DNA of 64,000 nt from Pseudomonadota bacterium (GCA_043823065.1 JBDRBB010000003.1:74260-138259); one strand, 5' to 3'; numbered from the stretch's first letter, positions 3,137-20,759 are shown. The notes: generated by a model from the sequence alone, not told the origin. Numbers and translations are program-made.

Positions 3137-3297
3137 ATACTAACTCCTTTGAATTGCTGATTAGCCATAGCTCCCCCAAGCAAATGGATGTGTTCTTTAA
3201 TCAAAAACAATAAATCATGTCAACTGCAGAACCAGAAAAAAAGTTGTTATTATTTATAATTGGGCTATGTTTGGACATGATTAAAAAATTGGATATT

Positions 3298-4236: not shown

Positions 4237-4242
4237 GATACA

Positions 4243-5595
4243 TTACTTCTTGCTATTATGATGCGCTTCTAATGAAGCAGCTCTAGCCTTCCAGGTGAAC
4301 AAGAATAAAAACGTGCCAATCACTGCCGCTGCTATAAAGAAGATAAACCCTCCATCCCAGCCCCATTTATCAACAACTAAGCCGGTTCCTACACCGCAAA
4401 TAGCGCTGCCAACATAACCAAAAGTTCCGGTTAAGCCAGTGGCTGTAGCAGCAGCTCTCTTTGAAGCAAAATCAGCAGCAGCAACACCAACCAGCATTTG
4501 CGGACCATAAATCAAAAACTTAACTGCAACCAAGTAAATAGTAGCAAGCACCTGGCTACCTACTGGAACCTTCCAAAGTCCAAATATAGCGGCAATTACA
4601 AGTATCATAAAAATAACATTAACCGGCCCTCTTCTACCTTTGAACAAAGTATCAGAAAACCAGCCAGCGCCAATTGCCCCAGCAATACCAACAACTTCAG
4701 AAATCGCAGTGATAATACCAGCATTCATCAGAGAAGCGCCCTTGGCTTCCACCAAAAACGTGGGCGCCCAATCTAAAACACCAATTCGCACAATATAAAC
4801 AAAAATATTGGCAAAACAAATGATCCACAACAGTCTGTTTTTTATAATATATTGAAAAAAGATCTCTTTAAAAGAAGCTGCATTATCATCACATTCATGA
4901 TCATCGCATTTGGCATCACCTCTATGTTTCTCCACAGGCGGCAAACCCATAGACTGCGGAGTATCGCGCAGCATGACCATTAAAAATATAGCTGAAACAA
5001 CAGCGATTGCTGCTGGCACAAAAAATGCCGAACGCCAGCCATAATGTGGAATTAACCAGCCAGCCAAGATCAAAATACCAGCGCCGCCAACTTGATGCGA
5101 AGCATTCCAAATTCCCCATTTTGTTCCAAGTTCAGTTGGCGAAAACCAGTGCGTTAAAAGTCTAGCGCAAGGAGGCCAACCCATTCCTTGAAACCAGGCA
5201 TTAGCTATCCAAAATACGCCAAAGAAAATCATCGAGGAAGAAAGACCAAAGGCTATGTTCATAAAAGCGGAAAGGATTAACCCCAAGGCCATAAAATAGC
5301 GGGCATTAGAACGATCTGACAACATCCCGCTGCAAAATTTAGAAACACCATAAACAATGGAGAACAAGGTAAGAATTAAACCTAAATCTGTTTTGGTGTA
5401 ACCTAGTTCTGACAAGAAATACGGCATAGCCATGGAAAAATTTTTTCGGCAGAAATAAAACATGGCGTAGCCAAACATCATTGAGGTTAAAATTTGGAAA
5501 CGCCATTTTTTATATTCTTTTTTGATTTTTGCTTGATCGGTAATAATTGGAGCAGGTGGCTGAGCAGCCAAACAGGAAAGCATATTTTTAATCAT
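4243..5595 (-). CDS. MFS organophosphate:Pi antiporter family transporter (UhpC/UhpT/GlpT-like)
   Basis: GYAMFYFCRKNF, FQGMGWPPC, WNASHQVGG, YGPQMLVG motifs; 12-TM pattern. Confidence 0.9.
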   Translation of the reverse strand: MIKNMLSCLAAQPPAPIITDQAKIKKEYKKWRFQILTSMMFGYAMFYFCRKNFSMAMPYFLSELGYTKTDLGLILTLFSIVYGVSKFCSGMLSDRSNARYFMALGLILSAFMNIAFGLSSSMIFFGVFWIANAWFQGMGWPPCARLLTHWFSPTELGTKWGIWNASHQVGGAGILILAGWLIPHYGWRSAFFVPAAIAVVSAIFLMVMLRDTPQSMGLPPVEKHRGDAKCDDHECDDNAASFKEIFFQYIIKNRLLWIICFANIFVYIVRIGVLDWAPTFLVEAKGASLMNAGIITAISEVVGIAGAIGAGWFSDTLFKGRRGPVNVIFMILVIAAIFGLWKVPVGSQVLATIYLVAVKFLIYGPQMLVGVAAADFASKRAAATATGLTGTFGYVGSAICGVGTGLVVDKWGWDGGFIFFIAAAVIGTFLFLFTWKARAASLEAHHNSKK

Positions 5596-5691
5596 TATCC
5601 CCCCTTTGCATATTAATTAAAAAAGCTGATAACTCATTTCAATTTATGAAGCTAAAATCAACATAAAAATTAAAAAACATGAGCTTTGTTC

Positions 5692-5751
5692 TAATTACCG
5701 CTGCCGCATATCTCTGATAATTGGGTGCAATCTACTGTCATCTGGATCAAC
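5692..5751. repeat. 60-bp direct repeat, copy 1 (3' end of 2051-aa gene)
   Basis: 58/60 identical to 11871-11930; first 39 bp identical. Confidence 0.9.
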
Positions 5752-8700
5752 GGCACGAATGCGAATTGGTTCATCAGCTCTAATTGCCTCATCATCTATA
5801 AAAGCACCGCTGCCGTTAAGAGTAATATTAAATCTCCAACGAGCCTCTGGCGTTTCCAGATTTGGCATTCTAGCGAAAATTTCCGGATACTCCCCTTCTA
5901 AACGTTCCAAAGAATATACCACACTATTGCCATCAGATGCTCTGACATCTCTATATCTATTTCTAAAAAGATGTAATCTTGCAGCTTGGTGGGCAATTAA
6001 TCTGCGTTCATTTTCCACCACTGTGTCACTAGCCCTAACCTCATTAACTAAATTACGAAATGCCTGGGCATAGGCTTCAAATCTATCTCGCATGATATCT
6101 GGATTGATTCCAGCTTGACTACCTGCAATAATATCTCGCATTAGATCATACCCAAGCACAATAGCTTTACCGCCGGTGATTTCATCTTCCGGATCATATA
6201 AATCAAATTCTTGATTGCATACATTAGATGAGTTTACAAATTCTCTAAATTGAACGTCATTTTCCACATTGGGATGATTCTCAGCTATATCCACCATACA
6301 ATCCCAAGCGCCTAAAAATACCTCATTAGCTATATGTTCATATTCAAAATAATTGTTTTGAGCTGGTCCTAAAACATTATCCAGAATATTCCAACTAGTA
6401 TCTATTTCATGCGAAATGGCAAAAACATCTCCCCCCAATCCCCAACTTGATCTCATAGGGCTGTAACTAAAAAATACACCTGGCTGAACAACATCACTAA
6501 AGCGATTGACTACTCTGGCTATTGGATCTGTTTCTGGGACTCTGTCTCCATCCAGCTCACTGATAAATGTTTCAAAACCATTGATACCATTACGGTAGGG
6601 TGGAAAAATAGCAGCCGGAATTCCATTGGCAAAAAAACCTAAAACATAACCAACAGATCTGGCTATTGGCGTATCATAGCCCAAAGGAGATTGGATATAG
6701 GGCCAAATGATCATGGCTGCTATGCCGTAGTTCAGAGCACGCTGAACACGTTGATATTCAGGATCACCGTTACTGGTATGCTGAAAAATTCCATAATTCA
6801 TGCCATAAGCTGCGCCCATTAAGAATGGCGCAGTCATGGCAGCGCCGCCAAAAGTATAGCGAGGAGTACTAAGCGTTCTACCCCTAAACACATTTAACCT
6901 TTCTCCACCCAAAACCAGATCATCAGCAAATTCCTGGCGAGCAGCATGCCAAAAACGATTGCCTTGAATCTCATAGCCCAAATCATCTAGATGTTGATCT
7001 AGCAATTCTCTATTTCTGACGTGTCTTCTAGCTGAACCAGCATAGGCGCGCTGAAATTCATTTACTGTTAAACGCCTGGCACCAAAGGCTATATCCCCTC
7101 TAAAACCATTAGTGGAATGAATCAGCCTGTTACTAGTAGCATCCCAACGCAAATTACGACTCAAGAGCCATTCTTGCGTGACTTGAACATTATTGAACCA
7201 GAAACTGGCATTTTCCCCTTGCCCCTGCACTCTAATATCATTGGCATAGGTTCTGAACCAGTCCCGCAGAACTGGCACGCGGCCCCAAGGAGAAGTATTA
7301 AAAAGACGCGGCGATTCAATCACAGTGTTTGGCACAAACTCTCCATAGTCACCTATGAATGCCCGTTCTGTTCTATAAAGCTGGCCGCCATCATGTCTAT
7401 TCCATCTATAACCCATTTGCCTTAAAGCAGTTGGTGTGATTTGCCTACCATCTAATTCAAAAATCTCTCTACCAGATTCTTCTCTAACTCTTAACTGAGT
7501 ACTACGCATTACCTCTCTAGAAGCAACGCTATATACTGAAGCAATATTTTCCACTCTGTTAGGCACAACTTCTTCCCTAAGTGGACTTAGCAATCTATGA
7601 GTTTTATTGTCCCAAAGATAACTAGTCCTTCTTTGCAATGCTCCTCTGCTCATTGCCTGGCCATCTAAGATAAATCTTGGCCTGTCTAAGCGGCCAAGCA
7701 CCACTTCTAAATTTTGCTCTACATTGGTTCTGGAATTGGTAATTGTATACGAAATGCGCCCAGGTCTATGAGCATCACTTCTTTCCAAAAAAACTGGAGG
7801 TGTTCGGCTAGTACCAGCTTCCCATTGATAACCTAATTGTTCTAAGGCTTGCGCTTCAACTTGGTTGCCATTTAAGTAAAATCTGGTTTGCCCGTTACCA
7901 ACTTGAACCCTAAGCATATTAGGTTCACCAGCAAAACCTTCTAGATCATAATTTCTAGAATTATTTGCACCATCTCTGAATGCTATTCTATTACCCCTGG
8001 CATCTAGCAATTCATTATTTGTCCATCGATAACCATTTCTACGCAAAAATGAAGCAGGAATTTGCTGGCCATTTAATTCAAATATAGGTCTTCTGCCATT
8101 AAATCTAACTTGCAGAGAATATTGAGGAGCAACAGGAGCTTGGATATTATAAAGGCGATCTCCATCAATTATGGTCGGCGCTACTCTTGATGATTGCACG
8201 TTAAAAACATGTCTTGAAATCGGATCCCATACATGACCGATTTCCAATAATCGCTGATTTAATTGAGCTTCTGTTATTTCTTGCCCATTTAGTCTAAAAC
8301 TGTACCCGCGCCCAAAACCATTATTATTTACTTCTAAACGAACCGGTGTGGCATCTGCTGAATGAGAGTTTTGAATCAGCTCATAGGTACGCAATCTTCT
8401 GGTAGCGCTTATTGGTGTAATTTCGGCTGGTCCGTATCTTTCATAAGTGGCACCTGGGCCACCAGTTAATAAGCCAGCATTCACTCCACTTTGCATATTT
8501 CTTAAGCCAGGCATTCTTTGAGATAAAGCAATCAATCTTCTACCCAACGGGAAACCCATGAGAAAAGCCCGGCCGCGCAAGATAGTCATGATCGGCACAC
8601 TAGAGCCTTGAGTTTCTGCGGCAAAAGACATGAGTCTGCGTTGATATTGGGCATCATCATAAAAACCACGAAAAGGATTTTGCCCACCTTGCCACAACAT

Positions 8701-11700
8701 AATTGCTTCTGTGCCAATCTTAAAAGGCAAAGCAACAATAATACCTAAGGCATTTACACCAGTAATTCTGCCGGTTAAAATTGCCAAACCAGCAGCACCG
8801 CCAGCACCACCAACAATATTATTTAATTCAGGCCATTCACCATCTAGCAGCGGTTCTCCAGCCAAATCAAGTCCCATCGCGCCCCCAGAATAGAGTAAAT
8901 ATCGCCTCATGGCCGGCTCCATCTGAGACCAATCATATCTGACAAAAAGTCCAGCTGTGAGAAGCAAGCCAACATCACCTACCCAAGAATTTTCATTTAT
9001 AATTCTAACTTGCTCCTCGCCCATTCTATCAGTATATTCCACTCTCCTGGCCAAACCCAGACCCAAAAAATCACCGCTAGAGATCAAATAGCTGTTGGCC
9101 CAAATCATATCCTGGCCTAAAAAGAAGGCATCAGCAGCATAACCTTGGTATAGAAGATTATACAAATTAGCTGAATACATTGACTGGGCTGTTCTTTGAG
9201 CCAGACCCATTCTAATTCCAGTATGCAAACCACCAGAAACAGCAAGCATACCACCAGCAGCGCGCATATAAAAACCTAAGTCCTCATCAAGATAATCAGC
9301 CGGATAACCTGCTAGATGCAGGCTTAAACCTGCGCCTAAGCGCCATTGTTCGCCGTAAGAAAGATAAGCCCTGACTTCTCCGAGATTATTCCCAAATATC
9401 CTACTTAACTGACCAGAGTTTTGCATAGCCCCTCTTAAGCCTTGCTGGGCAAAAAGCCATCGGCCACTATTTAGGGCACCTCTACCCAAGCCAGTAACTA
9501 ACACTCTACCAAAAAGAAAAGCTGGTCTGGCTAATAAGCCGGCATTAAGCATATTCAAACCAGTCATCACCCCAAAGGTGACCACATTACGAAAAGCTTG
9601 CTCAGAAGTTATATCAGATGAACCACTAATCTGCGCCCTTTCAATTAAATCCAAATTGGCTACAATATTTTGACCTGTATTGGCTGCTGAACCAAGGAAG
9701 GCGCATCCTGCAGCAGCAAGACCCAAACCAATACCGCTCCAGCCAAAAACCAAAGCGCCAACAGCATAACAACCTAAACCGCTAGCTGCTGGTATGCCAA
9801 AATCCCGCCAAGGATTGCCGGTCATTAAATAATCAGACATGGTATACCAATAGGCTTGCTCACCTTGAGGAGTGCCTGTAAAATCTCTGTCAACTAGATT
9901 GCCATCTTGGTCAAAAAGTTGCGGCTGATTTTGTCTTAAATCATGTTCTATATGCTGAAACAAAGGCGTAGAAACAATACCTTGCCGACCAGAGTTGCCA
10001 TCTATTAATCGCAGATCAAACCTTCTAATATCAAATAAGTCTGGAACTGTCGGCAATTGCGGTTCACTTTCATCTTGCCCTGGATTATCAATTAAAAAAG
10101 AATTTGCATCTGAAACAATATTTCGATTTGCTGTTCTGGAAAAATTAGATCTATCGTTAGAGTCTGTATTAAAAGCCAACAAAACATCATTGTCAGCAAA
10201 AGGATCAGTTAACAAAAAACGCAGGTTTTCTATTGCTTCTGGAGACCTATTGGCAGCTCTAGGTCCGTTAATAAAAAGACTCAGTACAGCTTGGGTATAA
10301 TGAGCATATAATGGATCATTCTCTTCAAGCGTTACCTCACTTTGAATTATATCTTCATAATCTTGAACCATATTAGCCAGCTGATTAAAGGCCAGCTCAA
10401 TTTCACTATTGTTGTGTTGTTGCGCCAATTGGGAAAAGATACCGCCACCCATGCGCAACCCCTGACTATCAACCTCGCCCCGAGCAGTATGGATGTTAAT
10501 TACTTGGTTTAGGGTTTGGCCCAAAATCCTCTTGGTAGCAACTGAAGCATTCTGAGAATTTTCAATTAAAGCACCAAGTTGTCTTTCTAAACCTCTTAAG
10601 CGCTCGTCTAGCAACAAGCTCTCTTCTGTGCTTAAATCTGGATTAGCAAACCGCAAATACGCATGACCTGTATAAAGTTGGCTTAAGGTTAGAGCTTCCA
10701 CCTGTTCTAATAATTCTAAATTGCCGACAGTAAAACTAACCTCTTGCAAATATGAGTTAAGCTCTTGGACACCACTATCTCTCAGCTCAGGATCAATATT
10801 TTCAAAGCCACTTAAAACAGAAAGAACTTCCTCCAAGTTATCTATAGTAACACCTTCTTCGCCTGTTATATCATTAATAGCGGACAATAATTCCTGAAGA
10901 TCATTTAAGCTCCCCAGCTCTTCTCGCAACGCCCTTATCTCTTCTAAAGCGCGTCTAACTTGGAAATGGTTATTAGAATCAAGATCTATTTGCAAAGACT
11001 GCAATCTATACCAAGCAGTAGCCATAATATTTTGGGCATTATCAATTGCTGCTTCATAATATTGTTGGCTCTGTTCAGAAGCACGAATAACTCTATAGGC
11101 ATCAGCAATCATTGCTGCTTGTTCTGAAGAAAGAGCTCTGCGTGCGTCATCAATATTTTCTTCATTAATTTCTTGGCCTAAAAAAGCTGTTAAAAATGCT
11201 CTATCCAATCGATTTAAATTGGCAGACCATCTCTGTTCCAAGGTTCGAACACTTCTTTCTAATTGTTCCACCCTATCTTCAGTTTCAGCAACTTGACTTC
11301 TTAAGATCATTAGATAGCTAGCGTTATCTGCCTGGCCAAAACCATCTGCATAAGCATCTGTCATTGCTTCATTTCTCATCTCTCTATCTAACTGCTGTCT
11401 CTGCTCTTGCAACAATTGCCTGCTGGTTAGCAAATTTCTTCTTTGAGCTTGAAGTTCTTGCAGGGCATCCTCGTCAACATCAAATAATTCCAAACCATAT
11501 TCAAAGATTTCGCCTAAAACAGCAGCGCTATCTGCATGCTCTGCATTTTCAACAAACAACTCTCTTAAGCTGGCTGCTGCTATTTCAAAATTTTCCTGAA
11601 GTTGAACTTCAGTTAATTGATTTAGATCAGTTGGTTCTAAACGGTCTTCGTGATTTGGAGTTGCTGTTGTTGGTTGTTCTAATAATTGGGCAAGTCGTCT

Positions 11701-11850
11701 TGACTCTCTTTGAAATAATTCCTCATATCTAGCATGATCTATATTAGCTGGCATGGACATGGTTGGCTCTGGCGTGGCCAACCATTCAAATAGATTTTCT
11801 CGATTACCCTCGCCAAACACTTTCAAGCGAGATTCGCCATTGGCAATCAT
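5695..11850 (-). CDS. Giant orphan protein (2051 aa): coiled-coil N-domain, Gly/Ala-rich multi-TM core, Arg-rich repeat domain; paralog 1 of tandem array
   Basis: Long ORF with SD AAAGGGGAG; 5 Lys; blocks shared with 11874-17009 and 17179-18900. Confidence 0.9.
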   Translation of the reverse strand: MIANGESRLKVFGEGNRENLFEWLATPEPTMSMPANIDHARYEELFQRESRRLAQLLEQPTTATPNHEDRLEPTDLNQLTEVQLQENFEIAAASLRELFVENAEHADSAAVLGEIFEYGLELFDVDEDALQELQAQRRNLLTSRQLLQEQRQQLDREMRNEAMTDAYADGFGQADNASYLMILRSQVAETEDRVEQLERSVRTLEQRWSANLNRLDRAFLTAFLGQEINEENIDDARRALSSEQAAMIADAYRVIRASEQSQQYYEAAIDNAQNIMATAWYRLQSLQIDLDSNNHFQVRRALEEIRALREELGSLNDLQELLSAINDITGEEGVTIDNLEEVLSVLSGFENIDPELRDSGVQELNSYLQEVSFTVGNLELLEQVEALTLSQLYTGHAYLRFANPDLSTEESLLLDERLRGLERQLGALIENSQNASVATKRILGQTLNQVINIHTARGEVDSQGLRMGGGIFSQLAQQHNNSEIELAFNQLANMVQDYEDIIQSEVTLEENDPLYAHYTQAVLSLFINGPRAANRSPEAIENLRFLLTDPFADNDVLLAFNTDSNDRSNFSRTANRNIVSDANSFLIDNPGQDESEPQLPTVPDLFDIRRFDLRLIDGNSGRQGIVSTPLFQHIEHDLRQNQPQLFDQDGNLVDRDFTGTPQGEQAYWYTMSDYLMTGNPWRDFGIPAASGLGCYAVGALVFGWSGIGLGLAAAGCAFLGSAANTGQNIVANLDLIERAQISGSSDITSEQAFRNVVTFGVMTGLNMLNAGLLARPAFLFGRVLVTGLGRGALNSGRWLFAQQGLRGAMQNSGQLSRIFGNNLGEVRAYLSYGEQWRLGAGLSLHLAGYPADYLDEDLGFYMRAAGGMLAVSGGLHTGIRMGLAQRTAQSMYSANLYNLLYQGYAADAFFLGQDMIWANSYLISSGDFLGLGLARRVEYTDRMGEEQVRIINENSWVGDVGLLLTAGLFVRYDWSQMEPAMRRYLLYSGGAMGLDLAGEPLLDGEWPELNNIVGGAGGAAGLAILTGRITGVNALGIIVALPFKIGTEAIMLWQGGQNPFRGFYDDAQYQRRLMSFAAETQGSSVPIMTILRGRAFLMGFPLGRRLIALSQRMPGLRNMQSGVNAGLLTGGPGATYERYGPAEITPISATRRLRTYELIQNSHSADATPVRLEVNNNGFGRGYSFRLNGQEITEAQLNQRLLEIGHVWDPISRHVFNVQSSRVAPTIIDGDRLYNIQAPVAPQYSLQVRFNGRRPIFELNGQQIPASFLRRNGYRWTNNELLDARGNRIAFRDGANNSRNYDLEGFAGEPNMLRVQVGNGQTRFYLNGNQVEAQALEQLGYQWEAGTSRTPPVFLERSDAHRPGRISYTITNSRTNVEQNLEVVLGRLDRPRFILDGQAMSRGALQRRTSYLWDNKTHRLLSPLREEVVPNRVENIASVYSVASREVMRSTQLRVREESGREIFELDGRQITPTALRQMGYRWNRHDGGQLYRTERAFIGDYGEFVPNTVIESPRLFNTSPWGRVPVLRDWFRTYANDIRVQGQGENASFWFNNVQVTQEWLLSRNLRWDATSNRLIHSTNGFRGDIAFGARRLTVNEFQRAYAGSARRHVRNRELLDQHLDDLGYEIQGNRFWHAARQEFADDLVLGGERLNVFRGRTLSTPRYTFGGAAMTAPFLMGAAYGMNYGIFQHTSNGDPEYQRVQRALNYGIAAMIIWPYIQSPLGYDTPIARSVGYVLGFFANGIPAAIFPPYRNGINGFETFISELDGDRVPETDPIARVVNRFSDVVQPGVFFSYSPMRSSWGLGGDVFAISHEIDTSWNILDNVLGPAQNNYFEYEHIANEVFLGAWDCMVDIAENHPNVENDVQFREFVNSSNVCNQEFDLYDPEDEITGGKAIVLGYDLMRDIIAGSQAGINPDIMRDRFEAYAQAFRNLVNEVRASDTVVENERRLIAHQAARLHLFRNRYRDVRASDGNSVVYSLERLEGEYPEIFARMPNLETPEARWRFNITLNGSGAFIDDEAIRADEPIRIRAVDPDDSRLHPIIRDMRQR

Positions 11851-11870
11851 ATACTCCCCTTTCTAGAGCT

Positions 11871-11930
11871 TAATTACCGCTGCCGCATATCTCTGATAAT
11901 TGGGTGCAAGCTGCTGTCATCTGGATCAAC
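11871..11930. repeat. 60-bp direct repeat, copy 2 (3' end of 1711-aa gene)
   Basis: Encodes VDPDDSxLHPIIRDMRQR-stop in both genes. Confidence 0.9.
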
Positions 11931-14900
11931 AGGAGGTGATAGCCTACGTCTGTTGGCTATAATAGTTTCTCTAGTTATACGTGCTCCGCTACCATTGAGT
12001 TCAATGAAGAAATTATCTCTTTCTTCTTGGCTATCCAAACTTTCAGGGATACGCTCAAATAAAACTGGATAATCATCTATAATCTGTTGGCATTCTTCAA
12101 CAAACGAGCCCCCAATAGATTCATGGTTATTAACAATGTACCTAATAATTGCAGCTTGAAATCCAGCAAATCGTAATTGATCTGTGGTTGTTGTTTCATT
12201 TCTTCTAATCTCTTCTAATGTTAAACGCACTCCCCTTGCATAAGAACTTAGTATATCCCCCATATTACCATGAAGTTCTTCATTCATACTATTTAACATT
12301 ACGCGAACATCGTCTGGAACCCTATGTTGCCTGGCCGCTTGTGAAGCATCTACACCATTTGACAGAGCCATCAGATAATCAATAGCTTCAACTGTAGTTG
12401 AATATGCTGGCTCTTCATATTCACGATTATTACCAACTGTTTGACCATAAAAATCTAAAAGGTTATAACTAGTTCCCATGCTATGCAAAATAGCGGAAGC
12501 TTCTTCCCAATCATCTTCTCCTAACTCATTAACAAAGCTTCCAAAACCAGGGATACGATCTCGATAAGGCGGGAACAAAGCTGCAGCGCCCATAATAACC
12601 GGAATACCCAACAAACCACAGATAACACGCGCCCTGCCAGTATCATAGCCAAGAGGTGATTGAATATAGGGCCAAATTACCAAAATTGCCGTAAGATAAT
12701 TTAAAACACGCTGCATTGGTTGATATTCTTCATCACCGCTACAAGTTTTTCTAAAAACATGGTTCTGAGTTAGCCAGACAGTTGGCCCTAAAATGGCCGC
12801 AGAGATAAGTGAAGAAATAGGTCTAAATTGTTGAGTTGCAAGTGTTCGGCCAGTTGATACAGTATTACGATAGCCACCTAAATTCAAGGTGCCAACATTT
12901 TCACTGCTACTGGCATGCGCCCTCACCCAAACCATTCTGCCATTTAATCTTCCACCTATCCTCACTTGAAAGGTGCGATAAATTGGAGTATTCAGTTCTC
13001 CTAAAGAAGCGTTTTCCAATATCTCCAGACGTTGGAGATTTTCCAGGCTGGCTCGCACAAAACGATCTCCGTTTACTGTCCAACCTTGATCTCGAATCAT
13101 CTGATCAGCGCGCTCACGTGCAGGACCAGTCATTCCTCTATATTCCCTGGGAGTTATGTTACGCCCAGCTATTTGTATCTCACTTTGAAATCTGGGTTCA
13201 AGCTGATACAAAACACTATTCCGTAAAACATAACCCTGTTCAACAAGCTCAGCTTCTGTAAGATATCGTCCATTCAAAGAATAGCGTTGTTGGGGAATTC
13301 TTGGATTATCATTGATGCGTAGCACATCACTACTTCTACCACCTCTGTCAACTGTATAGGTTCGTGAACCTGGATTTCCCAAACCACTTCTTATCCACTT
13401 ATCTGGAAATAGTCTTCTAGCGCCAACATTATTCAGGGCAATGCCAGCGCCACCTAATCCAGGCAGCTGGCCAATGTTGATCATGCTTGGCATATTTCTT
13501 AAAACAGGAATTCTATTTGCAACACGCAAAATATTCCTACCAAGCGCAAATCCACCTAAAAAGTTATTTCCTCTCAATATCCACATGATGGGAATACTAA
13601 TACCAATGGTCTCCACAGAAAAAGACCAAATACGACCAGGATCTGGACCGGTAATCGGCCGGCCTGCTTGCCATTGCATTAAAACTTCATTAGCAATTTT
13701 TATAGGCAAGTACCAAATCATGCCAGCACTACTTACACCAGTTAAACGGCCTGCTAAAATCGAAATGGCAACACTTCCACTAGCGCCACCTAACAAAGAA
13801 TTAACTTCGCCGTCTGATGCCCAGTCCAGCCCAACCCCCAAAGCTCCTGCAGGCAGAAACATTTGTTGTCCAAAACTCATGTTTGGAAAATCATAACGCA
13901 AAAATGCTCCACCTGCTAAAAGCACTCCAGCTGTTCCAACCCAGGTATCTGCGCCAATTCGTGGCTGTTCATTAGGACCTCTTGGAGGTTGAATAAGACC
14001 TAAACCATTGATATGATCTGGAAAAGGCAAACCATTGACAGTTCCAACAAAATCCGTGGATAAGAATCCATTTTCATCTGGCACAATTAAATAACGATCA
14101 GCCATATAAATATTAGTGCCGGCTAGAACAGCAAAATTAGCCCATCCTCCAGCAGAAGCATTCATAGCAGTTAAAGTTTCTTCTGCTATTACTGCCCGAA
14201 GGGGCACATGAGCAAGACCTGCTAAAGAAAGCGCTAAGCCAGATTGACGCAGATAAAAACCAGTATCACCATCTACATAATGACCAGCACCATATAATGA
14301 GCCACCAGCAACAATTTCTCCCGCGTTTAAACCATAGAGAATTTGTTGATTAAGCGGCAAAGCCCTATACCAACTAGCTACTTCTCCACCTACAGCACCC
14401 ATGCCTCTTAAAGCGCCAACGGGATTTAGTGCTGTAGCTAGACTACCTTCATTAGCTGCTAACCAAACTCGATAACCATTGCCGATATTGTAAATACTGG
14501 CACCAAAAAATTGACGCATTCCCCGGCCAATCGGACCAACAAACCTGCCATTAATTACAGCATTGACACTGGTAGTAACCCCAAAAGTAACCCAATTGCG
14601 AAATTCTTGTTCTTCAGTAATTTCCGACATGCCTGTTATTTCAGATTGGCGAATGGTATCATAATTCATGGCAATATTGACACCGCTCCTGCCTAAAAAC
14701 ACTGCTGTTCCACAAGCCCCTGCAGCTACAAAAGTGCCTACACCCGTCCAGGATTCTGGTAAAGCTGCCATACAAACCGCAGAAGCAAGTGCTGGTAAAC
14801 CAAACTGCCAAAAATCATTGCTAATTAAGTAATCAGATAAAGTTCTCCAGTAGGCATCATCACCGCGTGCAGTACCTGTAAAGTCTACGTCTGGCAATAA

Positions 14901-17009
14901 TTCACCATCATCATCAAAAAGATGCGGTTGTTCTTCACGTATATTCTGATTGATATTCTGTAAAAGTTGAGTATGCGCTATTCCTGGGCCGACTCCTCCA
15001 CCATTAATTAAATGCAAGTTCAGTCTTCGAATATCAAAGTTCGAAGGGACTTCTGGTGGATTAACATTTGGCTCTGGTTCTGATCGATCATCATCAATAT
15101 AAAAATGTCCATCAGATATCGTTCTGTCTTGTCTCACAAGACGTGAGTCAGGGCCTAGACCAGCAGATTTTGACGGCAAATCTCGTGTAGCTTGATTGAA
15201 TGCTAACAAAACACCTCTATCTTCAACCAAGTCCGCAGAAGATGGATCATTCAAATAACGTAAATTACGCAGAGCATCCTGCTGACGATTTACAGCTCTC
15301 ACCCCATTAACAAATAATTTAGTAACCACCCCCGCATATAAAGAATACAAAGGATCATTTGGCTCCTCTGTAATATGATTCTGAATTATGTCTTCATAGA
15401 ATAAAATTGCGTTTCCCAAACGTTGAAACACATCTTCAATTCCTTCATCATCATGTTCAGCATGGAGTTGTGCAATTATTCCACCACTTTCCCGCATACC
15501 ATCGCTACGCACTGCTCCGCGGGCTGTATATAAACTCATCATTTGATCCAGCATTTGCCCCCAAAGCCTAGCTTCTAAATCTGAGGCTAAATTGGCTCTA
15601 GTACGCATACGCTCTACCAATGTATCTTCTAGCGCTCTTTGTTGATTATCTAACAGATCGGTTTGCGCTTCACTCAAATTTTCCTGAGCATAACGCGCAA
15701 ACAGAGTACCACCATATTGTAAATGCAAGGCCAGGGCATCAATTTCTTCAATCATTTGCGGATCACCAATCATAACCTGCAATTGTTGGGCAAACATCTG
15801 CAACTCATAAGTCAGTTGTTCAATCTGACCAGCTTCTTGAGCTTGTTCTATAAATTGAAGAATATTTAGAATAGTATCGGGATCGACAGCTTCGTTTTCC
15901 AAACTACGTAGATAAATTTGTAGTTGCTCAAGTGCCTGGAAGGCACCTTCTGGATCTTGGTCTTCAACAAACACTTGAAGCTCTTGAACTAGCTCCATAA
16001 TCTCTCCACTAGAGCGAGAAATTAGACGCAGTTCATCTAAATTACTTCTAATATCTGCCACTTCACCAATAGCAAGCGTTACCAGTGATGCATCTTGGGA
16101 TTCCATATCCATTTGATAGGCCTGCAACTGATACCAAAGCCCAATCGTAACATTTGGCGCATTATCTATTGCTGCTTCATAATACTCGCGAGCAATATGA
16201 GTAGCACGAATAGCCCGCAAGGCATCGGCAAAGGTTGTTGCATATTGCAAAGGCAAGTCTTGTCGATATTGTTGCCTTAGTTCTGGATCAGGATTAAAAT
16301 CTTCAAATATTTCTTCAAAAATATCTTCTTCTAAAGCTAAAATATTTTCTGTAAACCTATCTTCTAATTGTTCTATCTCCCTTTCTATTTCCGTATGTTG
16401 ACTTTCCAAAGTAGAGATTCTGGTACGCAATTGAGTTTCAAATGAATCTCCTTGCGTCATATTAAACCCATCGGCATAAAAACTTGACATCATATCATTT
16501 CTTCGTTCTCTAACTAAGTCCGCACGTGCTTGTTCAAGCTCAGTTTGTTTTTCTCTTAAACGACGTCTGGCATCTTGTAGATCCTGATATGATCCTCGAA
16601 TATTATGAACGATGGCGCCACTGGCAAAAACAAGACTAACTGCTTGAGCAAATTCCTCTTGATTTTCTGTAACCATCGCTAATTGTAAATTTGTTAATCC
16701 TGACTCAAAATTGGCTATACTTTCTTCTAGGTTTATTTGATTTTCTTGCTGGTTTTGTTGATTTGGTTGATTTACTGAGTGGTTGGGATTTCTTGAATAA
16801 AGTTGAATAATGCTGTTGGTATAATTTATTTGGTGTTCAAAATGTTCAAGCTGATTTAATAGTCGTTCTTCAAAATGGCTTTGATCTATGCTTGCCGGCC
16901 TAGCCATTATTGGGCCGGATCTAATGCCGGGTGGACTTTGCTCTAAATGTGCGAGCAGCTCATTGGGTCGGCAAAAAAATTCTAAGCGAGATTCGCCTCC
17001 GGAAAACAT
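11874..17009 (-). CDS. Giant orphan protein (1711 aa), paralog 2 of tandem array
   Basis: Shares GESRL, YYEAAIDNA, WPYIQSPLGYDT, FPPYR, LNGSGA and the C-terminal tail with paralog 1; 6 Lys. Confidence 0.9.
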   Translation of the reverse strand: MFSGGESRLEFFCRPNELLAHLEQSPPGIRSGPIMARPASIDQSHFEERLLNQLEHFEHQINYTNSIIQLYSRNPNHSVNQPNQQNQQENQINLEESIANFESGLTNLQLAMVTENQEEFAQAVSLVFASGAIVHNIRGSYQDLQDARRRLREKQTELEQARADLVRERRNDMMSSFYADGFNMTQGDSFETQLRTRISTLESQHTEIEREIEQLEDRFTENILALEEDIFEEIFEDFNPDPELRQQYRQDLPLQYATTFADALRAIRATHIAREYYEAAIDNAPNVTIGLWYQLQAYQMDMESQDASLVTLAIGEVADIRSNLDELRLISRSSGEIMELVQELQVFVEDQDPEGAFQALEQLQIYLRSLENEAVDPDTILNILQFIEQAQEAGQIEQLTYELQMFAQQLQVMIGDPQMIEEIDALALHLQYGGTLFARYAQENLSEAQTDLLDNQQRALEDTLVERMRTRANLASDLEARLWGQMLDQMMSLYTARGAVRSDGMRESGGIIAQLHAEHDDEGIEDVFQRLGNAILFYEDIIQNHITEEPNDPLYSLYAGVVTKLFVNGVRAVNRQQDALRNLRYLNDPSSADLVEDRGVLLAFNQATRDLPSKSAGLGPDSRLVRQDRTISDGHFYIDDDRSEPEPNVNPPEVPSNFDIRRLNLHLINGGGVGPGIAHTQLLQNINQNIREEQPHLFDDDGELLPDVDFTGTARGDDAYWRTLSDYLISNDFWQFGLPALASAVCMAALPESWTGVGTFVAAGACGTAVFLGRSGVNIAMNYDTIRQSEITGMSEITEEQEFRNWVTFGVTTSVNAVINGRFVGPIGRGMRQFFGASIYNIGNGYRVWLAANEGSLATALNPVGALRGMGAVGGEVASWYRALPLNQQILYGLNAGEIVAGGSLYGAGHYVDGDTGFYLRQSGLALSLAGLAHVPLRAVIAEETLTAMNASAGGWANFAVLAGTNIYMADRYLIVPDENGFLSTDFVGTVNGLPFPDHINGLGLIQPPRGPNEQPRIGADTWVGTAGVLLAGGAFLRYDFPNMSFGQQMFLPAGALGVGLDWASDGEVNSLLGGASGSVAISILAGRLTGVSSAGMIWYLPIKIANEVLMQWQAGRPITGPDPGRIWSFSVETIGISIPIMWILRGNNFLGGFALGRNILRVANRIPVLRNMPSMINIGQLPGLGGAGIALNNVGARRLFPDKWIRSGLGNPGSRTYTVDRGGRSSDVLRINDNPRIPQQRYSLNGRYLTEAELVEQGYVLRNSVLYQLEPRFQSEIQIAGRNITPREYRGMTGPARERADQMIRDQGWTVNGDRFVRASLENLQRLEILENASLGELNTPIYRTFQVRIGGRLNGRMVWVRAHASSSENVGTLNLGGYRNTVSTGRTLATQQFRPISSLISAAILGPTVWLTQNHVFRKTCSGDEEYQPMQRVLNYLTAILVIWPYIQSPLGYDTGRARVICGLLGIPVIMGAAALFPPYRDRIPGFGSFVNELGEDDWEEASAILHSMGTSYNLLDFYGQTVGNNREYEEPAYSTTVEAIDYLMALSNGVDASQAARQHRVPDDVRVMLNSMNEELHGNMGDILSSYARGVRLTLEEIRRNETTTTDQLRFAGFQAAIIRYIVNNHESIGGSFVEECQQIIDDYPVLFERIPESLDSQEERDNFFIELNGSGARITRETIIANRRRLSPPVDPDDSSLHPIIRDMRQR

Positions 17010-17135
17010 TTTCTACCCCTTTTCTTTGCATGTAGCAGTGGCAAAAAACCGCATTCCTCATAAAATCCCCCAAAAGGAACAGGCTTATATCTGACACTGT
17101 GAAACAAAGCAAGCATTTTTTACCCTCTATTGAAA

Positions 17136-17161
17136 TTATCGCTGGTTATGAAAAAAGTTGC
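17136..17161 (-). promoter_or_regulatory. Putative sigma28-like promoter GCAAC-N15-CGATAA
   Basis: Minus strand taaGCAACttttttcataaccagCGATAA, 127 nt upstream of ATG 17009; same motif at four other orphan-region genes. Confidence 0.6.
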
Positions 17162-17178
17162 TTAAAAAAAGTGGGGGA

Positions 17179-18900
17179 TTAGGAAAGCCCTAAATATGCT
17201 AAAAACGAGGAAATTATTGTTTGATCTGCATTTGAGGCTGGTGCCATATTTACAGCCACAGGCGTTGCCACTGGCTGACTGGTTCTATTGGCAAAAAGAT
17301 GCGGATTTTCAGTTCTAAAAGTTTCAATATTGTTTTGGTAGGAATTAGTTACGGTAATATCAAGGCGTTCAACTGGTGGGCAACATAAAAGTTCGCCAAG
17401 AGCTGAAGCGCTAAACATACCTTCTATACCATGGTCCAGCGCAGTATGATTTACATGTTGGATATATCTTAAATTGTTAAGGGCTATATCTGGTAAGTTT
17501 ACTCTTCTTGGAGCTTCCACAAAGGTCATATACATAACATCTGAAAAATCTTCAAAAATAGAATCCCCTGTTGTAGGGGACATATGTGGTCTAACCAGAT
17601 CGGCAGTTGCGTTAAATCTAGCAATTAAACTTTGATATATTCTATTAGCATCTCTTAAACCATACGAGCTTTGACCTAAAAGTTGCATTACATAATTTAA
17701 CCATCCAGCTGGACGAAATGAGCTATCTATTCTACCCTCACGCAAAGCATAAACAGCAGCAATGCGCCGCATATTCTGCATAAAAGATTCACTCTCTTCT
17801 CTGGATGCCTCTCCACTTCTGGAACCAACCATAGCATCATACTCTTCTTCTAAATCTACCATTCTTGAGTCATACAGGGTCATTTCAGATTCAGAAATAT
17901 TTCTACCATAACGTAAAAAACTCATACCTTCATATAACAAACCCCAGGATTGAACGCTCAGATTATGCAAAGTTTGATTTTCTTCAGCAGTATGTGAATT
18001 TCTCAATTCTCCCGCAATAGATTGCCTTAAAGTTTCCAAACCAGAAACAGCATTTCTGATTCTAACAGAATCATTAGAATTAATATCTATTCTTAAGGAA
18101 GCTAATCTACTGGTGTCTCTTAAAATAATGTCTGCTGAATCTCTTTGGGCCACCAATTCATATAATCTTTGCGCTGCTCTTGGTGAATGATTCTCCTCAA
18201 AAAACTCTGCCAAGGTAACAGCGTCTTCATTGGAAAGCAAATTTCTATATTCTTCAATTGTGGAATAACCTTGGCCAAATCTTGCAACCAAAATTTCTTG
18301 TTCAAGTTGATCAACCGATTGTTCCCACCGTTGTTCCCGCATCGACACTACCGTTCTTTGTTGAGCTATCAATTCACTGACTATTCCCCAGTCATTAGCA
18401 TCTAGTTCACCTCTTAGCTCACTGCCACGTCTTCTAAGTTCATTATAGTTTCTACGACTAGCACAAATTACCTGATAATCATCTTCACTAATTTGAAAAT
18501 AATTCTCACCAGCATCTAAAACATTTTGTAATCCTGCTGAATCCGCAACAGACATCCTAAAAACTGATATTGCATCATCAAACTGTTGGGCACATTGATC
18601 ATCTTGCAAAATTATTGGCGGAATTTCTTCTGCCATTTCTTCTAGTTCTATTATTTGTTGATTTTCTGTTTCTTGAATTCTTGGTCTTGGTGGGGGGGCT
18701 GGATTTGGTCTTGGTTCTATGTAAATATCGTTGGGATGTGTGCGGGGTGTATAATTATTTCGTCCAACTTCCCCGCTTCTTTCAATTTCAAAATTAGGTT
18801 GTATTCTGGGGTTATTGAGTTGGCCTGGAGAACCGGGGGGGGTTCTGTTTGGGTCAACTCCTTGGTGAATTCCTTGAATACCTTCTCCACCTACATGCAT
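17179..18900 (-). CDS. Orphan protein (573 aa), short paralog 3 matching the N-terminal helical domain; zero Lys
   Basis: LYEGMSFLRY..., FVEAPRRVN..ALNNLRYI align with FVNGVRAVN..ALRNLRYL and FINGPRAAN..AIENLRFL of paralogs 1-2. Confidence 0.85.
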   Translation of the reverse strand: MHVGGEGIQGIHQGVDPNRTPPGSPGQLNNPRIQPNFEIERSGEVGRNNYTPRTHPNDIYIEPRPNPAPPPRPRIQETENQQIIELEEMAEEIPPIILQDDQCAQQFDDAISVFRMSVADSAGLQNVLDAGENYFQISEDDYQVICASRRNYNELRRRGSELRGELDANDWGIVSELIAQQRTVVSMREQRWEQSVDQLEQEILVARFGQGYSTIEEYRNLLSNEDAVTLAEFFEENHSPRAAQRLYELVAQRDSADIILRDTSRLASLRIDINSNDSVRIRNAVSGLETLRQSIAGELRNSHTAEENQTLHNLSVQSWGLLYEGMSFLRYGRNISESEMTLYDSRMVDLEEEYDAMVGSRSGEASREESESFMQNMRRIAAVYALREGRIDSSFRPAGWLNYVMQLLGQSSYGLRDANRIYQSLIARFNATADLVRPHMSPTTGDSIFEDFSDVMYMTFVEAPRRVNLPDIALNNLRYIQHVNHTALDHGIEGMFSASALGELLCCPPVERLDITVTNSYQNNIETFRTENPHLFANRTSQPVATPVAVNMAPASNADQTIISSFLAYLGLS

Positions 18901-19064
18901 AGGCAGTTCCTTAATGTCAGTTTTAGTCTATTGAATTTTCCAAAATTTCCGATGCATGTTTGATAACTTAATCAATATGACGCAATTGGTCAAGTTTAAA
19001 AATTAATATATCCTTGACTAAGAATATTAAAAGGAATTGAATTAGCATATCCCTTAATTTCTAA

Positions 19065-19118: not shown

Positions 19119-20759
19119 ATGTCCAATTATATTGATACAATTATAACCGAGCTTCGTCTGCCAGGAAGAATAAATTCTAGTGGCATCCTGGAATTTGATG
19201 AAGATTCTGTCACTGCAGATGAGCAAGCTAACTACAATGCAATTTTGCACGAAGTAGATGGCACGGTTGACTTTACTGGTGATGATGCGCCAGATGCAGC
19301 AGACGAAAGTATTCAGGCAGCAGAGCTTTGGGAAAGAATCTTAACTGATAGAGATAGATATAATGATTTGCTCGAGGGTTTAGCAACTGCAACATCCCAA
19401 CCTTTTGAAGATCCATTTTACTTATCACCTGCTATTAGACATTATATCAGGGATTTAGAAAGGCATCCCAGAAGACCAAATAGTCAAATTGAATTTGCCA
19501 GAAGAATTTTTTCTAACCTTATTCCACCTAACACAAGTTTTAGATTTAACAACAGAAGCTATCCTGCAGTTAGTCAAGGCAGAACAGGTGAACCCGGTGA
19601 TCCCATTTTAACAGGATTAAATATTCTCTTTAATGGCGAACTTATTGCGCCAATCAGGGAATACCATGGTAGCCCCCTGCCAGATGAACTAATCGCCCCA
19701 GAACATGCTCAAGAACGCGTGGCTAATTGTCTGGAGTTCAGCACATTAATTGTTGTTTTGTTTAGAGCAGCGGGTTTTGAAGCATATGTAGCGCGTGAAC
19801 AAAGCACAACCAACTTAGAAAGTCATGCCTACGTGCTAGCCAGGATCGGGGCAAGAATATATTTATTAGACGCCTATCCCCCTACCAACAACGAGACTAC
19901 TAATGTGGCTATTTTTGCTCCACAACCAGAACTTACCAGAGAGGACTTAATAAATACTGACAGAGAAACCACTTCCAGACACTATTCTAATGAAGCAGCT
20001 ACACTAGCTGAGCTAGAAAGATATGAAGAGGCACTAACAATGCTGGATATGGCCCTTGAATTAGATCCAACAAACGTCCAAGCCTTAAACAGTCAAGGAA
20101 TTATTTTTCATCGCAGAGCAAACCAAGAAGAGAACGCAGAACAAAGATATGAATACTTGGAATCTGCCTATGCTGCTTATGAGCGCGTTCATTTTTTTGA
20201 TCAGGATCATGCTACAGCCTGGACTCAAAGAGGTTTAATCAGAAGCGCTCAGGCTGAATTATCTAATAATAATAGTCAATTACTAAGAGATGCCATTACG
20301 TGCTATAACAATGCCATCCGGTTGAATTCCCAAGATGTTCAAACTACTCGATCAATCCATTATAATATGGGGAATGCCTTTATGACGCTTGGCAATATCG
20401 ATGCTGCCTTAGAGAGCTATGATCAAACCATTGAATTAGATCCAAATTATGAAACAGCTTGGCTTGCCAAAGCAGATGCCTTATTTGTTCAAGAAAATTA
20501 TCGTGCAGCGCGCCGAAATTATAGATATGTTCTTACTCTCAATAAAAATGCAGGGAACCCGATCAATGATCGTGCTAATACAAAAATTGCTGAAACAAGC
20601 TTGCGGATAATGAGACAAGAAAGAATCGAACAAGGTTTAGCAGGCATCGGCAGTGAACCAAGAGATGAATCTTATTTAAGATTCCAGGCATGTTCTTGCA
20701 GCTCACCTAGTTTTCATCCTTCTACAACTAATCTACTTGCTTTATTTTTGGCATTCTAA
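19119..20759 (+). CDS. Transglutaminase-like (Cys-His-Asp) domain plus TPR repeat protein
   Basis: ANCLEFSTLIVVLFRAAG...SHAYV...YLLD triad pattern; TPRs such as ALELDPTNVQA and HYNMGNAFMTLGNIDAALESYDQTIELDPNY; 3 Lys. Confidence 0.75.
   Translation: MSNYIDTIITELRLPGRINSSGILEFDEDSVTADEQANYNAILHEVDGTVDFTGDDAPDAADESIQAAELWERILTDRDRYNDLLEGLATATSQPFEDPFYLSPAIRHYIRDLERHPRRPNSQIEFARRIFSNLIPPNTSFRFNNRSYPAVSQGRTGEPGDPILTGLNILFNGELIAPIREYHGSPLPDELIAPEHAQERVANCLEFSTLIVVLFRAAGFEAYVAREQSTTNLESHAYVLARIGARIYLLDAYPPTNNETTNVAIFAPQPELTREDLINTDRETTSRHYSNEAATLAELERYEEALTMLDMALELDPTNVQALNSQGIIFHRRANQEENAEQRYEYLESAYAAYERVHFFDQDHATAWTQRGLIRSAQAELSNNNSQLLRDAITCYNNAIRLNSQDVQTTRSIHYNMGNAFMTLGNIDAALESYDQTIELDPNYETAWLAKADALFVQENYRAARRNYRYVLTLNKNAGNPINDRANTKIAETSLRIMRQERIEQGLAGIGSEPRDESYLRFQACSCSSPSFHPSTTNLLALFLAF

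Follow-up and report, generated by a model that had tools for sequence, protein, structure and literature searches.

The question raised by this locus is what three adjacent, co-oriented genes encode and where their products act. The genes lie in a stretch of 64,000 nucleotides (nt) from a Pseudomonadota bacterium (GCA_043823065.1 JBDRBB010000003.1:74260-138259), called the window below, and code for proteins of 2051 (gA), 1711 (gB) and 573 (gC) amino acids (aa). K and R stand for Lys and Arg throughout. An original prediction, made from the DNA alone, had proposed a pore-forming or translocated toxin or a multi-subunit translocon, with the short paralogue as adaptor, cap or dominant-negative partner. 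As judged from sequence and predicted fold, gA, gB and gC represent a previously undescribed, very rare family that has no named member and no detectable sequence or fold relative. The prediction did not include the near-absence of Lys, a hexapeptide shared by the N-termini, or the pairing of the family with a transporter of the organophosphate:phosphate antiporter (OPA) family. The explanation that we favor, tentatively, is that the three proteins are exported by a non-Sec route, insert in a target membrane and give access to phosphorylated metabolites, with gC as chaperone or adaptor.

The three paralogues and their family

All three genes are on the same strand, with ATG starts and plausible purine-rich ribosome binding sites, and the intergenic gaps are 169 nt (gC/gB) and 23 nt (gB/gA). 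Alignment of gA with gB gave 34% identity across the first ~1300 aa (E 5e-175), and a second alignment covered the final ~430 aa with 32% identity (E 7e-49). The short protein aligned to residues 106-546 of gA (23% identity, E 2e-17) and to gB (E 8e-10), and the family hidden Markov model (HMM) scored it at E 4.6e-40. The paralogy that had been proposed is far beyond chance. Two of the N-terminal motifs said to be shared, [IM]D[LMI][DEN]S and F[IV][NE][GA][PV]R..N....A..NLR[FY], were found by eye in gA, gB and gC; the third, YYEAAIDNA, is exact in gA and gB only, and its counterpart in gC is LYELVAQRDSA. The predicted block of WPYIQSPLGYDT and FPPYR, together with the tail VDPDDS.LHPIIRDMRQR, is indeed common to the two long proteins. 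The GC content of the window was ~0.40 throughout, and an Rfam scan of it returned no matches.

One domain order runs through the family: a disordered N-terminus, an alpha-solenoid resembling tetratricopeptide repeats (TPR), a linker with the motif P.LF..DG, ~15 Gly/Ala-rich helices of low charge, then between one and six beta modules and finally a C-terminal domain that is helical and conserved. As had been predicted, gC stops before the hydrophobic core; it consists of the disordered N-terminus and the solenoid only and terminates just past the P.LF linker motif. The Gly/Ala-rich core itself was also recovered, with Gly and Ala amounting to 22-30% over residues 700-1100 of gA versus 11-16% elsewhere. 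The core in the AlphaFold2 (AF2) model of gB is predicted to comprise ~15 helices, 19-38 aa long and with a high content of Gly, Ala, Ser and Thr; each has 0-3 charges, except for one 38-aa helix with 7. Kyte-Doolittle (KD) hydropathy in a 19-residue window peaked at 1.7 in the core and at 2.18 in the C-terminal domain, the latter value belonging to the strongest hydrophobic helix of gB, VICGLLGIPVIMGAAALFP. Several segments reached transmembrane-grade hydropathy (KD 1.5-2.18), Arg-rich segments flank the hydrophobic ones, and the analysis supports the view that the central helices are membrane-compatible. The Arg-rich insert of the original prediction is present, with the correction that a beta module of ~70 aa (signature F.LNG..I....L...GY.W) is repeated there in tandem. 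The module occurs six times in gA, once clearly in gB and no fewer than two times in the orthologue P0002, and copy number accounts for much of the length difference. In gA, the C-terminal domain comprises hydrophobic helices and a GDPxYQxxQRxxNY / WPYIQSPLGYDT / FPPYR block, and its extreme C-terminus is conserved.

AF2 modeling of gC with the family alignment gave a predicted local distance difference test (pLDDT) score of 75.5 and a predicted TM-score (pTM) of 0.70, with residues 75-535 forming a confident all-helical solenoid. The model of gB residues 600-1711 reached pLDDT 66 and pTM 0.58, and its C-terminal domain was helical at pLDDT 80-90. In Foldseek, the gC model showed a weak resemblance to TPR, HEAT and other alpha-solenoids (best E 4e-3, TM-score ≤0.27). 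The family profile matched designed consensus-TPR proteins at one hairpin (YY..A..N...AWY, E 5.5e-7), and no Pfam TPR match above threshold was obtained in gA, gB or gC. The gB model, searched against PDB as one unsplit multi-domain chain so that domain-level matches may be missed, gave no significant match (best E 0.04, TM-score ≤0.1) and no toxin in the top 50. Foldseek searches of the AF2 models against PDB and the viral models of BFVD found nothing at E≤1e-3.

Sequence searches were equally bare. Pfam at E≤1 returned nothing meaningful for gA, gB and gC, nor did NCBIfam and PDB-sequence searches, in which the profile gave the consensus-TPR hairpin alone. Searched in isolation, neither the repeat module nor the gA domains (Pfam at E≤10 for the latter) had a meaningful Pfam or PDB match, and Pfam at E≤1 across 23 members found no recurrent domain. 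Over these Pfam searches, the hits were HEAT repeats in one distant member and DUF1731 at chance level. The earlier statement that the proteins have no recognizable domain held up in these searches, as did the statement that they have no Sec signal, for which the N-termini of gA, gB and gC were inspected by eye only.

When 1.84 billion cluster representatives were searched exhaustively with an HMM built on the N-terminal 1150 residues, 26 proteins reached E≤1e-3. About 20 of the 26 are 1100-2600 aa long, and their matches fall chiefly in the hydrophobic core (profile positions ~680-1180); no other part of the family is conserved as widely. A word-indexed search of 5.8 billion proteins returned a single relative, P0002 (2004 aa, 42% identity), which is the orthologue of gA. 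A scan of genome collections found the P0002 species only, and a metagenome scan found only loci of species already represented here, one of which (L014) extends the P0002 locus downstream. The orthologue of gC, in locus L001, has 691 aa (27% identity, E 1e-50), and short-plus-long or tandem paralogue layouts recur among the relatives. In a full-length alignment of ten members the whole architecture is common to all. Its conserved motifs are YY..A..N...W in the N-terminal domain, P.LF..DG....VD...T directly ahead of the core, LPFK...E within it, and GDPxYQxxQRxxNY......TWPxIQxPLGxD, FPxYxNxxPG and the extreme C-terminus in the C-terminal domain. The second giant open reading frame (ORF) of locus L010 and a Lys-free ORF at positions 2-3136 of the window were rejected as family members (E>0.2).

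Annotated members are called ‘hypothetical protein’, and once ‘HEAT repeat protein’, in metagenome-assembled genomes (MAGs) of ‘Deltaproteobacteria bacterium’ or ‘Pseudomonadota bacterium’; one MAG that carries a P0002 orthologue is labeled ‘uncultured Pseudobdellovibrionaceae’. In these searches, members came solely from an uncultured, deltaproteobacteria-like lineage of uncertain phylogenetic placement and lifestyle.

Lysine depletion and the N-terminal hexapeptide

Lys makes up 0.0-0.4% of the three proteins (5/2051 residues in gA, 6/1711 in gB and 0/573 in gC), with Arg at 8-9%. At the Lys content typical of the window (~6.5%), the chance of such counts is 1e-17 to 1e-52. Acquisition from a high-GC donor was rejected as the cause of the Arg-for-Lys exchange, on the grounds that the Arg codons are mostly AGA, the GC content of the genes (0.39-0.42) is the same as that of their neighbors, and GC content at third codon positions (GC3) is no higher. 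P0002, the 691-aa short orthologue and a distant member, P0024, are purged of Lys as well. At the conserved-Lys columns of Lys-rich homologues, Arg takes the place of Lys in the purged members at a frequency of 28%, versus a 9% background. Among the few surviving lysines, K1044 of gA (8719-8721) and K1104 of gB (13698-13700) fall in the family-conserved LPFK...E motif of the core, which suggests that this Lys is functionally essential.

Besides gA-gC, Lys-poor and Arg-rich ORFs of the window were found at 2-3136(-), 19119-20759(+), 43318-44643(-), 44711-46987(-), 51416-52381(-), 52404-54068(-) and 58290-60083(-). This class has 0-1% K and 7-11% R and carries no Pfam domains, and in many of its members segments near the C-terminus are hydrophobic. 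The housekeeping and inner-membrane ORFs, similar in overall GC, contain 3-15% Lys (cytoplasmic enzymes 5-15%), and the inner-membrane proteins are unpurged: the major facilitator superfamily (MFS) transporter next to gA has 5.1% K, MurJ 4.5% and CitMHS 3.0%. In the lipoprotein at 47275-49083(+), all three lysines lie within the n-region of the signal peptide and the mature part is Lys-free; the lipoproteins at 60517-62469(-) and 50200-51345(+) have two and three lysines, respectively, outside the signal peptide. At loci whose giant protein keeps Lys, Sec-exported neighbors keep Lys as well. The co-variation in Lys content between the giants and the exported class is the main, indirect argument that the giants leave the cytoplasm, and we infer from it that gA-gC are exported by the producer. 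No description of a class-wide Lys purge combined with an N-terminal tag was found when the literature was searched for Lys-depleted secretomes of predatory bacteria.

As a separate observation, the lipoprotein-like Big_5/fn3 proteins at 47275-49083(+), 50200-51345(+), 60517-62469(-) and 62496-63986(-) are low in both Lys and Arg, and the first and last of them are paralogues with 43% identity.

The N-termini of the three proteins read MIANGE (gA), MFSGGE (gB) and MHVGGE (gC). Similar sequences begin P0002 (MYSGAE), its short partner (MHLGGE) and P0024 (MRSAGD), and they also begin unrelated Lys-poor proteins: those at 44711-46987 (MKCAGE) and 58290-60083 (MYSAGD) and a fusion of phosphoglucomutase/phosphomannomutase (PGM/PMM) with phosphomannose isomerase (PMI) in locus L007 (MFSAGF). 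When the ORFs of the window, L002, L014 and L007 were counted, the pattern M-x-x-[GAN]-[GA]-[DEF] was present in 9/15 Lys-poor/Arg-rich ORFs versus 0/40 others (Fisher p 8e-7, to be read as indicative only). Carriers outside the window are at 805 and 3277 in L002 and at 3580 and 10001 in L007. The hexapeptide, which can be summarized more strictly as M-x-x-[GA]-G-[DE], is a possible lineage-specific export or processing tag.

Transporter pairing and possible roles

Downstream of gA, and co-oriented with it, the MFS gene follows after 99 nt. Its product scored 428.5 bits on TIGR00881 (2A0104), above the cut-off of 407.75, which places it in the OPA family; it came closest to UhpC, GlpT and PgtP but fell below all equivalog cut-offs (UhpC, GlpT, PgtP and UhpT; the UhpC score was 459 bits). 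An orthologue of this gene directly follows the giant gene in the window, in the P0002 species (L001, L002, L013 and L014) and in L003/L004, L006, L007, L011 and L016; the pairing thus spans seven species-level loci with GC contents of 0.36-0.65. MFS proteins were 72% and 49% identical to that of the window where the giants are barely alignable, and the pairing extends even to the most distant member, which scores E 9e-4 against the profile and whose MFS neighbor has the 49% identity. The other neighbors of the pair partly differ. FTCD is upstream in L003, L006 and L008 and directly downstream in L010, Fe-ADH_2, HAD and RlmN are downstream in L003 and L011, and DUF4423 is upstream in L016. The exceptions to the pairing are L008, where the giant gene is followed by a second family member and then the contig end, L009, where the genes after P0016 are those of its paralogue P0018 and of two PGM/PMM proteins, and L010, where the MFS gene is 7 kb away.

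Sugar-phosphate enzymes recur at these loci, with PMI beside the pair in the window and L007 and PGM/PMM in L007 and L009. The L007 fusion protein (3580-8415(+), 1611 aa, 0.4% Lys) joins an N-terminal part of ~760 aa with no known function to PGM/PMM domains I-IV and a PMI domain; its gene adjoins a PMI with normal Lys, the giant P0024 and the OPA transporter. The fusion belongs to the Lys-free, tagged class and has the appearance of an exported sugar-phosphate enzyme.

On the reading that we consider possible and tentatively prefer, gA-gC would leave the cytoplasm of the producer by a non-Sec route, in this sub-lineage perhaps marked by the N-terminal hexapeptide. Their central and C-terminal hydrophobic helices would insert in an outside membrane, whether that of a prey cell, a host cell or a compartment around the bacterium. 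The inserted giants would be, or hold in place, a conduit through which phosphorylated metabolites become accessible, and the presumably co-transcribed UhpC/GlpT-like antiporter would import these metabolites. As the solenoid alone, gC would attend to the hydrophobic cores of gA and gB as their chaperone or adaptor, and the beta-module array, with its variable copy number, may be a binding or spacing element. A partner role for gC is suggested by the partner-binding kind of its solenoid and by the recurring short-plus-long layouts. Support for the steps falls in the order non-Sec export, entry into an outside membrane, access to metabolites and the chaperone role of gC. If this reading is true, the locus would define a new giant membrane-inserting family coupled to a sugar-phosphate importer, and a candidate device for feeding on another cell.

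The closest functional analogies appear to be two. Type III secretion system (T3SS) translocators (YopB/YopD, IpaB/IpaC) are without a Sec signal and insert central, moderately hydrophobic helices in the target membrane; their genes adjoin each other and those of TPR class II chaperones (SycD, IpgC), which keep the hydrophobic region soluble. The arrangement here is similar in that gA and gB carry a fused TPR-like solenoid, gC is the solenoid alone and a further TPR gene is adjacent, but in size the proteins studied here exceed the translocators 3- to 6-fold. No translocator profile matched gA, gB or gC in Pfam (E≤1) or NCBIfam (E≤0.1), or any of the 23 members, and the adjacent TPR protein (19119-20759) scored 21.3 bits against a cut-off of 104.8 on the class II chaperone profile TIGR02552 (LcrH_SycD). 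The second analogy is with Chlamydia trachomatis, which secretes the phosphoglucomutase CT295 and glycogen enzymes and imports glucose 6-phosphate via UhpC (PMC9251005, PMC4829429). Here too a UhpC-type importer is found beside presumed non-Sec-exported proteins, including the L007 fusion. The phylum is a different one, however, there is no T3SS evidence in our locus, Chlamydia has no counterpart of the giant proteins, and the likeness is known from gene neighborhood alone.

Several observations weigh against the preferred reading. Most core helices are of merely moderate hydropathy (KD 0.2-0.8) and could be buried in a large soluble helical bundle, and the AF2 model of the gB core is only moderately confident, with parts at pLDDT <50. 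Invariant polar residues (GDPxYQ, QRxxNY, WPxIQxPLGxD) lie in or between the C-terminal hydrophobic helices and would suit a site of binding or catalysis in a resident membrane protein better than a toxin pore. The giant gene stands in conserved chromosomal synteny (FTCD, RlmN, HAD), so part of the MFS adjacency may be inherited gene order. Other family members have a normal Lys content (1.6-10.6%) and no N-terminal tag. The hexapeptide was defined post hoc, and several of its carriers are paralogues, leaving four independent families. No secretion system, and no injectisome gene, is visible in the 64-kb window, and the case for a predator or parasite lifestyle consists of one MAG label and the DUF4423 genes.

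The invariant polar motifs, the synteny and the absence of a visible secretion system favor the main rival, a resident inner-membrane role, which we regard as somewhat doubtful. On this account gA-gC would be giant inner-membrane proteins of the producer, acting as accessory, scaffold, sensor or membrane enzyme of the adjacent antiporter pathway, for example in the release or handling of glycerophosphate or hexose phosphate. Their hydrophobic helices would be polytopic, and the N-terminal solenoid, Arg-rich repeats and C-terminus would be cytoplasmic. The Arg-rich flanks of the hydrophobic segments fit the positive-inside rule, the lack of a known type of export signal (by eye) and of a visible secretion system is as expected, and the invariant polar motifs and the placement in a block of core-genome synteny, together with genes for MFS, a Na/Pi cotransporter, Fe-ADH_2 and HAD, are in keeping with such a role, as is the resemblance of the Lys-rich members of other lineages to ordinary cellular proteins. 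Against it, the MFS, MurJ and CitMHS proteins are unpurged, unlike gA-gC, whose Lys purge tracks the exported lipoproteins. A fused 450-aa solenoid, a solenoid-only paralogue and fast tandem divergence (34% identity) would also be unusual for housekeeping membrane enzymes.

A wider proposal, which we think rather unlikely in its full form, is that the lineage has purged Lys from its exported proteome, which would consist of lipoproteins and of Arg-rich proteins without a signal, the giants and even sugar-phosphate enzymes among them. The hexapeptide would then mark this second group and define a new route of export or delivery, the purge would confer immunity by composition, and the giants would be the conduit of a feeding apparatus with the UhpC-like importer. 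The Lys-directed process to be escaped in the target compartment could be the lineage's own Lys-specific protease, a transglutaminase-like cross-linker (the Lys-poor TPR protein encoded beside the cluster is transglutaminase-like), or host ubiquitin or Pup ligation. Lys-poor A chains are known from AB toxins that translocate from the endoplasmic reticulum (ricin A, cholera toxin A1, pertussis toxin S1). ‘Lysine deserts’ have been described as well (PMC10665810). As in these cases, Lys has been removed and Arg retained, in proteins that survive a hostile compartment; unlike in them, the purge here spans a whole protein class that includes lipoproteins and 2000-aa proteins. The purge and the hexapeptide point to an undescribed export signal and a strategy of ‘immunity by amino-acid composition’. 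Independently of mechanism, the two form a sequence-level marker that could be used to read the exported or effector repertoire from genomes.

That gA-gC are pore-forming toxins or a translocon purely for killing or permeabilizing, with the MFS adjacency an inherited order that has no functional meaning, appears improbable. The Gly/Ala-rich amphipathic helices, large size, absence of a Sec signal, fast-diverging paralogue arrays and a composition typical of exported proteins are compatible with this idea, and of the original toxin proposal the membrane-compatible helices stand and export is favored by the Lys purge. In large clostridial toxins a central hydrophobic stretch of the delivery region is thought to form the pore, and gA and gB likewise are single polypeptides of >1500 aa whose central helical part is hydrophobic and rich in Gly and Ala; unlike those of the clostridial toxins, their genes are in chromosomal core synteny and not in a toxin locus. 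No TcdA_TcdB_pore (Pfam E≤1), glucosyltransferase, cysteine-protease or CROP domain was found in gA-gC, and the colicin channel domain had neither a Pfam nor a fold match. The suggested kinship with colicins, T3SS translocators and large clostridial toxins therefore found no backing in sequence or fold (no Pfam match at E≤1; Foldseek best E 0.04, TM-score ≤0.1). There is no small immunity-like ORF between or after gA-gC, the C-terminal domain is the same across the family, and the MFS adjacency persists where other neighbors differ, down to the most distant member. The toxin idea fits poorly because of the conserved chromosomal synteny, the conserved C-terminal domain and the consistent nutrient-importer partner. 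A polymorphic-toxin version was rejected on the family-wide conservation of the C-terminal domain.

It also seems quite unlikely that gA-gC are soluble or surface structural proteins, such as an adhesin, a fiber or the scaffold of an attachment organelle, with the Gly/Ala-rich helices as the buried core of a bundle. The moderate hydropathy of most core helices would suit this, and solenoids and repeat modules are typical of scaffolds. The gB model has a weak global tendency in Foldseek towards alpha-solenoids such as karyopherins, but these matches are all non-significant (TM-score ≤0.1). The transmembrane-grade segments (KD 1.5-2.18) speak against a purely soluble protein, and the conserved transporter pairing would be left unexplained.

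Known non-toxin families, which had been named as a possible refutation (tape measure or SMC-like proteins), were not found in Pfam or BFVD. For tape measures there were only BFVD entries at E≥3.5 and TM-score ≤0.1, and the neighbors of gA-gC are chromosomal housekeeping genes. SMC/AAA domains had no Pfam match in gA-gC or the 23 members, and with 0-6 lysines, none in a GxxxxGK context, a Walker A lysine is hardly possible in gA-gC. Since the membership tests against known families failed, we classed the proteins as a new family and not as a member or variant of an existing one.

Other features of the window

Coordinates are collected in Table 1.

Table 1. Positions of the three paralogues, their domains and adjacent features in the window.
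Feature	Position (nt)	Strand	Basis or remark
Lys-free large ORF, at least 1045 aa, 0 Lys, 75 Arg	2-3136	minus	Runs off the left end of the window
Type I PMI, normal Lys	3217-4236	plus	Pfam; context only
OPA-family MFS transporter (UhpC/GlpT/PgtP-like), 5.1% Lys	4243-5595	minus	Pfam MFS_1, TIGR00881
gA, long paralogue, 2051 aa, 5 Lys	5695-11850	minus	ORF call, alignment, composition
gA C-terminal conserved domain, aa ~1640-2051	5698-6933	minus	Alignments
gA array of six ~70-aa beta modules, Arg-rich, aa ~1155-1600	7051-8388	minus	Repeat analysis
gA Gly/Ala-rich hydrophobic helical core, aa ~684-1135	8446-9801	minus	Hydropathy, composition, conserved columns
gA N-terminal TPR-like solenoid domain, aa ~100-560	10171-11553	minus	Alignment to gC; common to all three paralogues
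gB, long paralogue, 1711 aa, 6 Lys	11874-17009	minus	ORF call, alignment, composition
gB C-terminal conserved domain, aa ~1395-1711	11877-12827	minus	Hydropathy, AF2
gB beta-rich region with a single clear repeat module, aa ~1242-1387	12849-13286	minus	Repeat analysis, AF2
gB hydrophobic helical core, aa ~733-1165	13515-14813	minus	AF2 model, helix analysis
gC, short paralogue, 573 aa, 0 Lys	17179-18900	minus	ORF call, homology to gA/gB
gC parts: disordered Pro-rich N-terminus, aa 1-73; TPR-like alpha-solenoid, aa 75-535; short hydrophobic tail			
Promoter-like element CTTGACCAATTGCGTCATATTGATTAA (TTGACC-N17-TAAGTT), 27 nt	18968-18994	minus	68-94 nt upstream of gC
Lys-poor TPR protein, 3/546 Lys	19119-20759	plus (divergent from gC)	Composition, Transglut_core sub-threshold

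The element CTTGACCAATTGCGTCATATTGATTAA had one match in the window and none in 100 shuffles, and it is kept upstream of the orthologous short gene in L001; from this it is a putative promoter. A general promoter and terminator scan of the window gave promoter counts near the shuffle expectation.

The Lys-poor TPR protein has an orthologue beside the cluster in the P0002 species (L014 2971-4512(-), 34% identity, E 2e-77). Both proteins match Transglut_core at E 0.004-0.006, which is below the cut-off, and contain a Cys-His-Asp-like segment, NCLEFS...HAYV...LLDA. The protein is a possible partner of the cluster. The large Lys-free ORF at the left end has a helical N-terminal part, a hydrophobic block near aa 790-960, no Pfam match and no detectable homology to gA-gC, and it possibly belongs to the same functional class.

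The surrounding genes are ordinary chromosomal ones (MurJ, GlmS, GlmU-like, UvrD, PmbA, MazG and RibF). A DUF4423 gene at 49343-50203(+) has a GC content of 0.32, markedly below that of its neighbors; in L016, DUF4423 lies directly upstream of the distant member P0026. In the ORF at 56287-57264(-), an IS200-like Y1 transposase domain occurs together with the helix-turn-helix domain of the DnaA C-terminus, and a Y1_Tnp gene is also found near the member P0012. The ORF at 38889-41612(-) encodes a 907-aa S41/PDZ tail-specific protease with 10% Lys, in which a C-terminal extension of ~470 aa is without a Pfam match.

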